Source of the DNA: Escherichia phage FL31
Sequence record: PP400782
Length of the DNA stretch: 64,000 bases
Direction: 5' to 3' (one strand)
Of the stretch, positions 58,934 to 63,156 are shown in pieces; within the stretch, counting starts at the first letter, position 1; each line of letters begins with the position of its first letter. The notes beneath the pieces were generated by a model. The model saw only the letters and a program-made list of their open reading frames with translations. It searched no databases and was not told where the DNA came from. Position numbers and translations under genes: made by a program.

Positions 58934-59593
58934 TTAACCTCGATTCATAAATGCATTAAATATTTGGTCATCAACAGAAATTTCTAATTCGACTTCAATT
59001 GCTTCAGCCTTTTCTTCAGGTGGTAATTCGTATCCACACACTACAATTTTTTCATCGATATCAAAATATACAGAAGCAATACGATTAATGTTATTTTCAG
59101 TTAAGTCCAAATCAACATCAACATCTTTTTGGCCTACACTTAGAGGATAACTAATACGGGTTATTTTATTATCTTTAACAAAGAGTCCACCAACATACTC
59201 TGTACTGCGTTTGAAGTTTACACGTTTCCGAATTGAAAGATATGATACATCTTTACCGTGAGCTCGGCTCATAGGACATAATGAATAGCTAGAATAAGAG
59301 ATGTCAAATCCTACACCTTCAATATGAGCCAACGCGTCATGATTAAACCAATTATAATCATATGCCAAATCCATTATATTGTAATATGTGAAAGGCACTG
59401 GATTAACATCATATGTTGTACCTTTAAAATCAGCCCAGGCAACGATTTCGTTATCTTTAACAATTACAAAAATTACACCAATATGGTATCCGTTATTATT
59501 TTCATTCGGCGTTATATTATAACATTGTGCATTAGGAAATTTACCATATTTAAATGGTGCGTTTTTGTGCATGTAATAAATCATATTATTCAC
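58934..59593 (-). CDS. hypothetical protein (219 aa)
   Basis: ORF track. Confidence 0.5.
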   Translation of the reverse strand: MNNMIYYMHKNAPFKYGKFPNAQCYNITPNENNNGYHIGVIFVIVKDNEIVAWADFKGTTYDVNPVPFTYYNIMDLAYDYNWFNHDALAHIEGVGFDISYSSYSLCPMSRAHGKDVSYLSIRKRVNFKRSTEYVGGLFVKDNKITRISYPLSVGQKDVDVDLDLTENNINRIASVYFDIDEKIVVCGYELPPEEKAEAIEVELEISVDDQIFNAFMNRG

Positions 59594-59879
59594 CTGTGAT
59601 TTCGGTTACGATATCTTTGTTATCGAAATTAGGGTCACAATACAAAACATAGTTGTACTGCATAATACCGCCAGACTTAAGTTGTTCAACAACTTTATTA
59701 ACCATGTTAGGACGGTCTCGTTTAGTGATGTTCATGATATCAGAGAAGATTTGTTGTTCAACCTCTTCTTGATTTGCAGTCATTGACCACTCACAGAGGT
59801 CTTTATCATAACCTGCCGTAACTGGAGCCGGTGCACATGATACTGCAAGTAAGATTGCTGCCAATGATAACTTTTTCAT
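59586..59879 (-). CDS. sp: spackle periplasmic protein Sp (superinfection exclusion / lysozyme inhibitor)
   Basis: 97 aa; signal peptide MKKLSLAAILLAVSCA then GYDKDLCEWSMTA...GGIMQYNYVLYCDPNFDNK matches T4 Sp. Confidence 0.82.
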   Translation of the reverse strand: MKKLSLAAILLAVSCAPAPVTAGYDKDLCEWSMTANQEEVEQQIFSDIMNITKRDRPNMVNKVVEQLKSGGIMQYNYVLYCDPNFDNKDIVTEITGE

Positions 59880-59899
59880 TTTAACTCCTTAGTTGATTT

Positions 59900-59938
59900 G
59901 ATAGGACTACTATACTATAGTCCATCTATAATGTAAAC
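59900..59938 (-). promoter_or_regulatory. early-type promoter (GTTTAC ... TATAGT) upstream of sp
   Basis: Minus-strand read; inverted repeat GGACTAT/ATAGTCC around -10. Confidence 0.5.
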
Positions 59939-59942
59939 AAGT

Positions 59943-60191
59943 TTATTCTTTTTCGCGAATAATAATTACTTGTTGAGGCTGCTGAGCCGATTTCTTTTCG
60001 GCAACGATAGACCAAATTAAAGTTCCAATCCAACCAACCATCGTCCAGTTAAAGAGTAAAGATACAAAGAAGATTGCTGTTGTGCTTTTTGTGCCACGAA
60101 TAAGTGCGATTACCCAAGGCAACATGTAAATGATGATTGAACCAATACCTGCGATTAAAACTGCTACTGAACTAGCTACGAATAATTCCAT
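59943..60191 (-). CDS. small integral membrane protein (82 aa)
   Basis: Two predicted TM segments (VAVLIAGIGSIIIYMLPWVIALI, IFFVSLLFNWTMVGWIGTLIWSIV). Confidence 0.5.
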   Translation of the reverse strand: MELFVASSVAVLIAGIGSIIIYMLPWVIALIRGTKSTTAIFFVSLLFNWTMVGWIGTLIWSIVAEKKSAQQPQQVIIIREKE

Positions 60192-60252
60192 GTTAATTTC
60201 CTCTTGATTTGTTATGTTTATAGTATCTTGTTTTAACTTTGGTGTAAACCAA

Positions 60253-60621
60253 TTAATTAAATTTGTTTAAACGTTCAATACACTGGACGTAGTTATTCGC
60301 GATTTGTTTCTGGGTAGGCTCTTTACCAGTTGTTTCAACATAGCGAATGAATGCGATTTCAGTGGCCTGTAGACAATGTTCTTTAACGCGTTGTTCTTTT
60401 GACAATGCTACAGTATCAGAGTCACGATAACGTTGAGCATGGGCATCAGCTTGAATCATTCGATTACCTACAGTAACCGGGTCTTCCACTTCAACTTTAG
60501 GTTGGTCATACTGTTTAACATTCGGATTGTAAATTAATTGGCCAACGTTATTAGGGATAAAGCCATGGGCACCACATCCGGTTAATCCAAATACCATTGC
60601 TAAAGCGATTAATTTTTTCAT
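60253..60621 (-). CDS. putative lipoprotein (122 aa)
   Basis: Signal peptide with lipobox MKKLIALAMVFGLTGC. Confidence 0.5.
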   Translation of the reverse strand: MKKLIALAMVFGLTGCGAHGFIPNNVGQLIYNPNVKQYDQPKVEVEDPVTVGNRMIQADAHAQRYRDSDTVALSKEQRVKEHCLQATEIAFIRYVETTGKEPTQKQIANNYVQCIERLNKFN

Positions 60622-60639
60622 TTCAATTTCCTCTGTAGT

Positions 60640-60679
60640 TGATAGAAAGATAGTAACACAGTATGTGGTGCTTGTAAAC
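60640..60679 (-). promoter_or_regulatory. early-type promoter (GTTTAC ... TACTAT)
   Basis: Minus-strand read; between dmd and lipoprotein gene. Confidence 0.45.
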
Positions 60680-60692
60680 AGTTATTTTAAAA

Positions 60693-60881
60693 TTATTGAA
60701 AACCTGCTTCGAAAACTTTCTCGTCATTAATAAATGCTTTAACTAATGCTTTGTTCACTTCAGCAAGTTGTACCGTAACCCACTCGATTTCTTCGCGATC
60801 ACCTGATAACATGATATCTTTAGTGAACATCTCACCGCTTTTAAACCAACCGATAAAAGTAACTTTAGTTAATTTGCTCAT
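60693..60881 (-). CDS. dmd: Dmd antitoxin (inhibitor of host RnlA/LsoA RNases)
   Basis: MSKLTKVTFIGWFKSGEMFTKDIM...EVNKALVKAFINDEKV matches T4 Dmd; ATG overlaps upstream stop (ATGA). Confidence 0.75.
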   Translation of the reverse strand: MSKLTKVTFIGWFKSGEMFTKDIMLSGDREEIEWVTVQLAEVNKALVKAFINDEKVFEAGFQ

Positions 60882-61195
60882 ATTTCCTCGCAAAATGCCC
60901 ATTCAGCGTGATAAACTGTAGCGCCTTTAGTATCATTCATTTGAACTACATCTACCGGAGAAATTACTCGATAGAGACGTGGTTCACCTCCATAAGAGCG
61001 TGCTGCTCGTCCTGCATAAATCTTTGCTAAACCGATATCTTCAGTAAAGAATACACGATCCAAGTTTTTCTTACGTCCAGTTTCAGACAGAACTCCTGTT
61101 TCTTCAGGAGGACAAAGCATGTTTTCGATGTTAGCTGAACTACTTGAACCGTGATAAAAAATCTTAAATTCTGCTTTACAATCGATGGTTTTCAT
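60878..61195 (-). CDS. hypothetical protein (105 aa) translationally coupled to dmd
   Basis: ORF track; contains FYHGSSS followed by Tyr/Arg-rich segment; promoter 61209-61249 upstream; no T4 counterpart recalled here. Confidence 0.5.
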   Translation of the reverse strand: MKTIDCKAEFKIFYHGSSSSANIENMLCPPEETGVLSETGRKKNLDRVFFTEDIGLAKIYAGRAARSYGGEPRLYRVISPVDVVQMNDTKGATVYHAEWAFCEEI

Positions 61196-61208
61196 TTTGT
61201 TCTCCAGT

Positions 61209-61249
61209 AGTTGATAGGTCTATAATAACACAACTACTGGAGAAGTAAA
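61209..61249 (-). promoter_or_regulatory. early-type promoter (GTTTAC ... TATTAT) for the 105-aa ORF/dmd pair
   Basis: Minus-strand read; 9-bp inverted repeat CCAGTAGTT/AACTACTGG, downstream arm overlapping the SD. Confidence 0.5.
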
Positions 61250-61250
61250 C

Positions 61251-61625
61251 TTAAAAACGTAATTTAGATACATCTGCGTTGATTTCGGTTTGGTTTGCGT
61301 CGTATGCAATTAAACGAACCGCTTTAGATGGGTCATTCAATGCATAGAAATGATGGAACATTGCTCGAACGATATCACCATTTACGAGTTCTACCTGGAT
61401 AGGAGAACCTTTTTCGAGTTGGAAATGTTCATAAGCTTTGATGGTTCGCAGATAATCAAGTTTTTGATTTCCGGCTCCAACAATTTGTACGATACGTTTG
61501 CCCATGTTTTCCATACGAGATACAATAGTTTTAGGAGCAAGAATAACGTAGGTTGCCAGCGGAGAAACTACTTCAACAGTTGTGTTTTCGGTGATTGCAG
61601 TAAAAATTGCTTGAGACATATTCAT
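61251..61625 (-). CDS. hypothetical protein (124 aa)
   Basis: ORF track; own promoter 61645-61684; no T4 counterpart recalled between dmd and 41. Confidence 0.5.
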   Translation of the reverse strand: MNMSQAIFTAITENTTVEVVSPLATYVILAPKTIVSRMENMGKRIVQIVGAGNQKLDYLRTIKAYEHFQLEKGSPIQVELVNGDIVRAMFHHFYALNDPSKAVRLIAYDANQTEINADVSKLRF

Positions 61626-61644
61626 AATGTTTTCCTCTTGGTTT

Positions 61645-61684
61645 GTGTAAGTACATCATATCATGCCTAGAGGAAGATGTAAAC
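61645..61684 (-). promoter_or_regulatory. early-type promoter (GTTTAC ... TATGAT) for the 124-aa ORF
   Basis: Minus-strand read; directly downstream of gene 41 terminator. Confidence 0.45.
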
Positions 61685-61688
61685 CCCG

Positions 61689-61710
61689 AAAGGAGACCGA
61701 AGTCTCCTTT
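61689..61710. terminator. hairpin after gene 41, potentially bidirectional
   Basis: AAAGGAGAC-loop-GUCUCCUUU; U tract follows on plus strand, UUUCGGGG on minus strand. Confidence 0.55.
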
Positions 61711-61713
61711 TTA

Positions 61714-63156
61714 TTAAAATTTTAACTCATTGGCTAAGCTATCTAGGTCAGCACGTGTTGCTTTGGCTTTACCTACGCGTTCCGTACGATTCACCTCTGC
61801 CTGACGCATCTGAGCACCTGCGTTTTCATTTACTGTGTTAGGTGTGTTCATGCCTTCTTGCTCAATCTCAACCCATTTCTGGTTGCCTTTACGTACACCC
61901 ATCAGGAATTTATTCCACTTATTCTTATCACCATATCGTGATTTGATTTGTTTGATAAGTTGTTGTTCAGCTTGTGCAAGTTCTTCGGTTTCAATTACAG
62001 CCAACATGAAATCTGCCGTTGCTGGTAAACCTGCTGATTCTGCGATATCACTCATGTTCATGTCTGAAGCATCCCATGCTGCACGTCCTACTTGAGCTGC
62101 AGTCCATAGAACTGTTTCAGATTCTACTGCTAATGCACGAAGTTCTTCTGCGATAGCTTTAACTAATGTGTAGCTATTTTCAGTGTAAACTCTGATACGA
62201 CAAGACCCACAAATACCTAAGTAATCAACCATGATTACAGATGGCACAAAGTTCTTCTTAAGTTTTAACTCATTAAGCAATGCACGAAATGTATTAGCGT
62301 TAGCTCCACCAGTAGGATACTGTTTAACTACTAAACGTCCTAATGTTGTTTTTGAACGCCATTTTTCCATCTTGGCTTTATATTCAGCATAAGATACGTT
62401 ACCATCATCGATATCATCGAGTGATACGTCAAGCATGTTTGCATCTATACGCTTAGCACAAACTTCTTCAGCCATTTCCATGGAAATATAAAGAACATTA
62501 TGACCTGTTTGAAGATAATCTGCAGCAAGTGAACAAAGGCCTAAAGATTTACCGACGTTAACACCGGCCATTAAAACGTTTAGTGTACCTGTTTCAGCAC
62601 CACCTTTAGTGATTTTATTCAAAATGTTTAATTTGAACGGGACCTTACGTGCTTTATTTAGATAAGAAAGCCAGCGTGCTTCGTAGTCTTCCATCCAGTC
62701 ATGTCCAACATAACTATCGAACGAAATTGAAAGTGCTTGACGCATAATATCAGGAATAGCTCCTACGTCAGGCATTTTCTTGTTACGTTGTTCTGGAGGT
62801 AGTTCAGCATTAGACTGAATCTCAATGATTTTGGACGTAGCATTATACATCGCTTTTTGCTGGACATATTTCTCAGTTTCTTTAACCAACCATTCGTGGT
62901 CTTCAGGAGTATCAGCCAATTTTTCAATTAGGTCTGAAGTTCCTTTATATTCGGCTTCAGTTAAAGAACTGTTATCTAAAGCCACCTTTAACGCATTGAT
63001 AGATGGCATTGCATTATATTCGTTAACGTGGCTCTTTATAATTTTAAAGACATTTTTTGCCGGTCCACGCTCAAAATACTCAGAATCCATATAAGGCCAG
63101 ACCTTAGAAAAATAAGCCTGGTCATATACTAGATGAGACAAAATAATTTCTACCAC
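61714..63156 (-). CDS. 41: replicative DNA helicase gp41 (DnaB-like)
   Basis: 480 aa; Walker A GVNVGKS, DnaB-family helicase blocks. Confidence 0.9.
   Translation of the reverse strand: MVEIILSHLVYDQAYFSKVWPYMDSEYFERGPAKNVFKIIKSHVNEYNAMPSINALKVALDNSSLTEAEYKGTSDLIEKLADTPEDHEWLVKETEKYVQQKAMYNATSKIIEIQSNAELPPEQRNKKMPDVGAIPDIMRQALSISFDSYVGHDWMEDYEARWLSYLNKARKVPFKLNILNKITKGGAETGTLNVLMAGVNVGKSLGLCSLAADYLQTGHNVLYISMEMAEEVCAKRIDANMLDVSLDDIDDGNVSYAEYKAKMEKWRSKTTLGRLVVKQYPTGGANANTFRALLNELKLKKNFVPSVIMVDYLGICGSCRIRVYTENSYTLVKAIAEELRALAVESETVLWTAAQVGRAAWDASDMNMSDIAESAGLPATADFMLAVIETEELAQAEQQLIKQIKSRYGDKNKWNKFLMGVRKGNQKWVEIEQEGMNTPNTVNENAGAQMRQAEVNRTERVGKAKATRADLDSLANELKF

Follow-up and report, generated by a model that had tools for sequence, protein, structure and literature searches.

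The stretch of DNA analysed here, referred to as the window, covers 64,000 nucleotides of Escherichia phage FL31 (PP400782), a Mosigvirus, i.e. an RB69-like T-even phage. Two small open reading frames of 82 and 122 aa are found on its minus strand, flanked by sp and dmd (Table 1). An earlier examination of the letters, here called the sequence-only reading, had described them as a protein with two transmembrane segments and a lipoprotein with the lipobox LTGC; coordinates, hydrophobicity and lipobox were all as described. Both are real genes and not chance reading frames, since they have Shine-Dalgarno sequences, promoter-like boxes and Pfam matches above threshold, and are conserved in about 150 genomes. 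Their identity is already known, as the genes are annotated imm (82 aa) and imm.1 (122 aa) in RB69 and many relatives. The 1.8-kb region has more than 95% identity (98-99% to Mosigvirus) in about 150 phage genomes, and the G+C content of the imm.1-imm locus equals the window average.

Table 1. Features of the imm.1-imm locus in the window, listed by gene and followed by spacers and neighbours.
Feature	Position	Strand	Basis or content	Remark
imm, inner-membrane superinfection immunity protein (predicted), 82 aa	59943..60191	-	ORF, Pfam, PHROG, RB69/T4 identity	
Imm hydrophobic segment 1, about residues 3-31	60099..60185	-	19-residue Kyte-Doolittle windows reaching 1.6 or more across residues 1-34	
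Imm hydrophobic segment 2, about residues 38-63, Trp-rich	60003..60080	-	Kyte-Doolittle windows 40-59 of at least 1.6	within Imm_superinfect domain
imm.1, predicted secreted lipoprotein (DUF5481 / phrog_1754), 122 aa	60253..60621	-	ORF, Pfam, PHROG, RB69/T4 identity	
Imm.1 predicted signal peptide, lipobox L13-T-G-C16	60574..60621	-	regular expression and reading of the sequence	Cys16 codon 60574-60576; +2 residue Gly17
Imm.1 predicted C-terminal helical hairpin	60280..60375	-	C83 (60373-60375), C114 (60280-60282)	probable disulfide
imm-sp spacer	59880-59942	-	promoter-like box 59937 to 59909, TTTACA-17-TATAGT	Shine-Dalgarno AAGGAG
imm.1-imm spacer	60192-60252	-	promoter-like box 60248 to 60220, TTTACA-17-TACTAT	Shine-Dalgarno GAGGAAA
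dmd-imm.1 spacer	60622-60692	-	promoter-like box 60678 to 60650, TTTACA-17-TACTAT, preceded by TG	Shine-Dalgarno present
sp (spackle)	59586-59879	-	Pfam T4_Spackle 1.1e-42; phrog_1586	immediately downstream of imm
dmd (antitoxin against RnlA/LsoA)	60693-60881/60902	-	Pfam Dmd 2.6e-20; 189-nt CDS in relatives	upstream neighbour
AdfA (anti-DarT factor A, T4 61.2)	58934-59593	-	Pfam 1.9e-119	directly downstream of sp

Within 2 kb are found dmd, which is an anti-toxin-antitoxin counter-defence gene, the exclusion block, and an anti-DarTG gene. The helicase gene 41 is located further upstream of dmd. Two additional minus-strand reading frames lie between gene 41 and dmd, one of 105 aa (60878-61195, phrog_2110), overlapping the start of dmd by 4 nt, and one of 124 aa (61251-61625, phrog_10668). 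Neither gave a credible Pfam match, and at this position T4 has no counterpart of either. A hairpin, GGAGAC-TTCG-GTCTCC, follows right after the stop of gene 41 (about 61690-61712).

Promoter calls were made as consensus matches only. A GTTTACA-17-TACTAT box is present ahead of imm and of imm.1, inside spacers of 61-71 bp, and both genes have a GAGGAAA Shine-Dalgarno sequence 6-8 nt 5' of the ATG. The 124-aa and 105-aa reading frames, imm.1, imm and sp are five consecutive small genes on the minus strand (59880-61716), each with its own GTTTAC(A)-17/18-TAnnAT box and Shine-Dalgarno sequence in spacers of about 60-90 nt. The boxes bracketing the small genes look like mobile promoter cassettes of the PeSL type.

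The sequence-only reading had also noted that T4 has a single small ORF between dmd and sp, which is correct: this is gene 61.4, encoding 85 aa in T4 and 70 aa in RB69. The gene is cleanly absent from the window, where the putative promoter region of imm.1 follows straight after the dmd stop. RB69 has a 206-bp block here (compare L004:5691-5964), and several close relatives, which match the window in two pieces, also carry the block. The missing block is the sole difference between the window and RB69 at the locus.

Hydrophobicity was evaluated by a Kyte-Doolittle scan using 19-residue windows and a cut of 1.6, and the two segments given in Table 1 belong to an 82-aa protein without cysteines. 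This protein matches PF14373 (Imm_superinfect) with 56.9 bits, where the gathering threshold is 27.9 (E 1.8e-15, residues 21-62 aligned to domain positions 1-42 of 42), and phrog_1039, 'immunity to superinfection', with 1.2e-30. Its identity is 100% with RB69 Imm, annotated under this name in NC_004928, and 65% with T4 Imm over 82 aligned residues, i.e. the full length; on these similarities it is the T4 Imm orthologue. By tblastn against 1040 phage records imm was found at one place per record, and the window has one copy. Sequence searches found no solved structure among relatives of Imm or Imm.1, and neither protein falls into an NCBIfam or PADLOC family.

The 122-aa protein matches PF17578 (DUF5481) with 37.3 bits (gathering threshold 27, E 3.7e-9) and phrog_1754 over its full length with 5.1e-29. 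It is 99% identical to RB69 Imm.1, so annotated in NC_004928, and 34% identical to T4 Imm.1; imm.1 is likewise single-copy, with one per genome by tblastn and one in the window. The N-terminus reads MKKLIALAMVFGLTGC, in which MKK-LIALAMVFG-LTGC has an n-region, a hydrophobic core and a lipobox of the pattern [LVI][ASTVI][GAS]C. The protein would consequently be exported and is probably lipid-modified at Cys16. Sorting to the inner face of the outer membrane is probable because the residue at +2 is not Asp (Gly17).

Apart from Cys16 the protein has two cysteines, C83 and C114. Two AlphaFold runs gave a mean pLDDT of 58 and 64; confidence is confined to the C-terminal helices, and no structure is predicted for about the first 45 residues. 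The helices cover residues 75-98 and 104-120, reach a pLDDT of about 90 in the better model, and carry one conserved cysteine each. The model suggests a flexible tether of about 45 residues with a conserved motif, followed by a helical hairpin probably stapled by a disulfide. Fold searches with the Imm.1 model returned no informative match.

Two other assignments for Imm.1 were considered and rejected. For an o-spanin (Rz1-like) there is no adjacent or embedding i-spanin gene, and imm.1 is linked to imm and has an early-type promoter-like box, unlike a late lysis gene. A lysozyme inhibitor like Sp, MliC or PliC has neither sequence nor fold support. In T4 (NC_000866), imm.1 (L003:16637-17014) is named 'iduronate sulfatase' in RefSeq, a label that has been propagated to some relatives; it looks like an annotation error because T4 Imm.1 is a protein of 125 aa with a DUF5481 match only. 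Imm.1 is among the gene-content differences reported between the T4 and RB69 groups (PMC5885020). In the searchable literature we found no functional study of or experiment on Imm.1 and no paper on DUF5481.

Among the proteins of the locus Imm.1 is the most diverged between the T4 and RB69 types, with 34% identity as compared to 54-87% for Dmd, Imm, Sp, AdfA and gp41. Within each genus it is nearly constant: identity never falls below 95%, either among the 502 Tequatrovirus records, T2 and Yersinia phages included, or among the 154 Mosigvirus records. Conservation outside this phage, the lack of which the sequence-only reading had named as speaking against its proposal, is therefore wide.

By sequence the Imm.1 family is narrow. 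A word-index search gave 6 clusters among 5.8 billion proteins (another such search gave 3), exhaustive HMMER gave 8 representatives among 1.8 billion, and a profile of 14 Imm.1 sequences gave 20 clusters. Further members came to light when the genes next to imm were inspected in other lineages of T-even phages; all members from these other lineages, given below, match phrog_1754, with E from 5e-9 to 7e-52. In Tequatrovirus and Mosigvirus Imm.1 has a lipobox and is encoded directly upstream of imm. The gene is also upstream of imm in Klebsiella phage JD18 (Jiaodavirus; gp024, lipobox LTGC), Citrobacter phages Merlin and Ursula (Moonvirus; Merlin46 and Ursula_0059, LTGC), Salmonella phage NP4 (Gelderlandvirus; NP4_043, LAGC), Serratia phage PS2 (Muldoonvirus; PS2_047, LTGC), Serratia phage 4S (4S_45, LSGC) and a metagenomic lineage (P0005, with a signal peptide ending in AHA and no lipid cysteine). 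It is downstream of imm in Shigella phage SP18 (Gaprivervirus; gp045, LSGC) and in Escherichia phage fDHCT2 (a 167-aa protein, LSGC). This means that the phrog_1754 gene adjoins imm in all 10 T-even lineages where it was found (61 bp upstream in the window), the export signal being a lipobox in nine and a plain signal peptide in one. This adjacency across lineages, maintained through at least two rearrangements, is what the present analysis adds to the existing annotation.

One of the 11 imm-bearing lineages examined, Providencia phage PSTRCR_127 (Gualtarvirus), has imm and sp with no phrog_1754 gene nearby. Here (L015:1519-1952) a 64-aa Imm homologue is followed at once by an 80-aa Spackle homologue (phrog_1586, 4e-17), both annotated as hypothetical, making this the second lineage with imm next to sp.

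In the 14-sequence alignment, C83 and C114 are invariant, as is a tyrosine corresponding to Y31 of the window protein, and the number of cysteines besides the lipid cysteine is even throughout the family. After the lipid cysteine the family has the motif G-x-(I/V)-V-x-A-x-x-V-G-(K/Q)-(I/V), and the +2 residue is never Asp. The lipobox is kept in 12 of the 14 aligned members, and in the remaining two the signal peptide ends in AHA. These two, P0002 and P0005 (L005:4001-4372), are from a metagenomic T4-like lineage; their lipobox has another residue instead of the cysteine (LAGF, LAFS) and is followed by a site of the signal-peptidase-I type, AHA. They would be soluble periplasmic variants of Imm.1. 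Genes of this type keep the place immediately upstream of imm, in the interval from 43 to 42.

Imm is a textbook exclusion protein. It would be made within minutes of infection and stop the DNA of later T-even phages from crossing the inner membrane. Blocking of DNA entry is established for T4 Imm, and by orthology the window protein is expected to act likewise. The T4 protein is located in the plasma membrane and is thought to act where the tip of the tail tube meets the inner membrane (PMC6832632); Imm and Sp of T4 are both made early and guard the infected cell against secondary adsorptions (PMC7677548; PMC6832632). The sequence-only reading had suggested superinfection exclusion for the pair. 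For the two-TM protein this stands, given the 65% identity to T4 Imm, the Imm_superinfect match and the 100% identity to RB69 Imm, while for the lipoprotein the role is one we infer. We consider it highly probable that, jointly, the two ORFs are the RB69-type imm.1/imm cassette upstream of sp and that Imm.1 is an accessory in the same protection.

The position of the pair differs between the two groups of phages. The gene order is 43 - imm.1 - imm - 42 in T4, and 41 - two small ORFs - dmd - 61.4 - imm.1 - imm - sp - 61.2 in RB69, where the interval between 42 and 43 has sugar-nucleotide (sugar-modification) genes and no imm. The order of imm.1 and imm within the pair is identical at the two sites. 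Since the same single-copy pair is found in the same order at another site, it is, on gene order and similarity, one conserved two-gene cassette relocated with respect to T4 and not an addition to the T4 repertoire. As a result of its position, the Mosigvirus block imm.1-imm-sp has three envelope genes contiguous, with an early-promoter-like box on each. PeSL promoter cassettes mediate the shuffling of modules in the hyperplastic regions of T4-type phages (PMC2839356; PMC4122927), and recombination between repeated early-promoter cassettes of this kind is the most likely way in which imm.1-imm would have moved. The sequence-only reading took the pair to be an extra module relative to T4, and this part has to be given up, as T4 has the same imm.1-imm pair between 43 and 42 and the RB69 type has a single copy. 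That the pair sits where T4 has 61.4 alone is what an additional lineage-specific exclusion module, on top of T4 imm and sp, would have in its favour. We give this explanation practically no credence: both proteins are single-copy orthologues of T4 proteins, the 42-43 interval of RB69 is without imm, and the window contains no second copy.

Receptor masking was the other function proposed in the sequence-only reading. Imm.1 would then be an independent lipoprotein of the T5 Llp or phi80 Cor type. Held by its anchor in the outer membrane, it would bind the outer-membrane protein that serves the phage as receptor, from the periplasm, and block further adsorption, and the adjacency to imm would reflect shared early timing only. 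The lipoprotein signal with a +2 residue other than Asp, as in Llp (Llp mechanism: PMC9586334), agrees with this, as does the large extent to which Imm.1 differs between genera (34% identity, compared with 54-87% for the neighbouring proteins); PS2_047 also gives a weak match to a Cor PHROG (8e-4), which is confined to the signal-peptide region 1-40. Masking is nevertheless very unlikely because Imm.1 is conserved within a genus regardless of receptor. Adhesins and receptors vary widely inside Tequatrovirus and Mosigvirus. Despite these differing receptors, Imm.1 keeps its identity of at least 95% throughout the 502 and 154 records, a constancy which, as an indirect test, is unlike that of a protein tracking a hypervariable receptor specificity. 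Furthermore, Pfam, PHROG and PADLOC connect the window protein with none of the Llp/Cor families, some Imm.1 family members are without a lipid anchor, and classical work on T4 shows that infected cells still adsorb secondary phages, as lysis inhibition requires (PMC6832632).

A less easily dismissed explanation, to which we give an appreciable though minor chance, is that Imm.1 is unrelated to exclusion, has another early envelope role, and merely travels together with imm in a mobile promoter-bounded cassette. Possible roles would be to modulate lysis timing or lysis inhibition, to stabilise the envelope, or to counteract an envelope defence of the host. Lu and Henning (1989) reportedly found that imm on a plasmid excludes T4 by itself; Imm alone would then be sufficient, and Imm.1 could not be strictly required. 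Gualtarvirus, many non-T4 phages and bacteria moreover have imm and no such lipoprotein, and as each gene has its own promoter-like box, co-transcription is not required. An obligatory role is also opposed by PSTRCR_127, which is without the lipoprotein, and by the two family members without the anchor cysteine. Against mere co-travelling, the adjacency outlasts both the relocation between the T4 site and the sp site and the inversion of gene order in Gaprivervirus and fDHCT2. Small neighbouring genes turn over freely, as does 61.4, which is present in RB69 and absent from the window, so that the linkage exceeds what is expected from passive hitch-hiking.

We therefore prefer the reading of Imm.1 as an accessory envelope partner of Imm, to which synteny points. 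That its linkage to imm survived both the relocation of the pair and the inversion of gene order is the reason for assigning it to the same protection. Imm.1 would be accessory to an envelope-level protection against secondary adsorption, directed at some conserved element of the injection route instead of the variable receptor. The pattern of an Imm.1 that is constant in a genus and diverged between genera fits a genus-conserved partner, either the injection machinery or Imm, better than a variable receptor. In T4, Sp is established to bind the tail lysozyme gp5 in the periplasm and to inhibit it (PMC7677548), and Sp of the window would act in the same way on incoming gp5.

A more far-reaching form of the accessory-partner reading, in which the 'immunity' of T-even phages is a two-component device with outer-membrane-tethered Imm.1 cooperating with inner-membrane Imm, is put forward tentatively and we rate it as rather unlikely. 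Imm.1 might then capture or mis-guide the tail-tube tip or the tape-measure protein of a secondary phage, or position Imm at injection sites. The genus divergence of Imm.1 (34% between, at least 95% within) might help to determine the pattern of mutual exclusion among T-even genera. In such a device the Mosigvirus early block would unite three layers, Imm.1 tethered to the outer membrane, Imm in the inner membrane and Sp in the periplasm.

There is little direct consequence of the result as such. The useful residue is the question of what Imm.1 does as a constant, exported neighbour of imm. If it takes part in exclusion, it would provide a handle on the passage of the T4 tail tube through periplasm and inner membrane, and would bear on why the T4 and RB69 groups exclude each other.

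Compared to T4 Imm, the window protein has 82 instead of 83 aa, the same two hydrophobic segments, the same C-terminal tail QVIIIREKE and imm.1 in front, whereas the T4 gene is located between 42 and 43 and the window gene beside sp; the 35% divergence between the two proteins could affect the range of phages excluded. T4 Imm.1 and the window Imm.1 share the lipobox, the motifs YNPNVK-x-Y and AQ-x-YR-x-SD and two C-terminal cysteines, and the T4 type differs in having an extra N-terminal cysteine pair, which is missing from the window protein.

T4 Spackle, an envelope protein that is made early and exported, belongs to the same protective programme as the pair, and its gene is here the immediate downstream neighbour. 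It differs in being a soluble periplasmic inhibitor of gp5 with no similarity in sequence or fold to Imm.1 or Imm (PMC7677548). Llp of T5 and Cor of phi80 and N15 are small early phage lipoproteins, probably of the outer membrane, with a stabilising disulfide (PMC9586334), and are thus functional analogues without detectable homology to Imm.1. Llp and Cor both follow a single receptor, FhuA. Imm.1, in contrast, stays invariant among phages whose receptors differ, and is tied to the gene of an inner-membrane partner.
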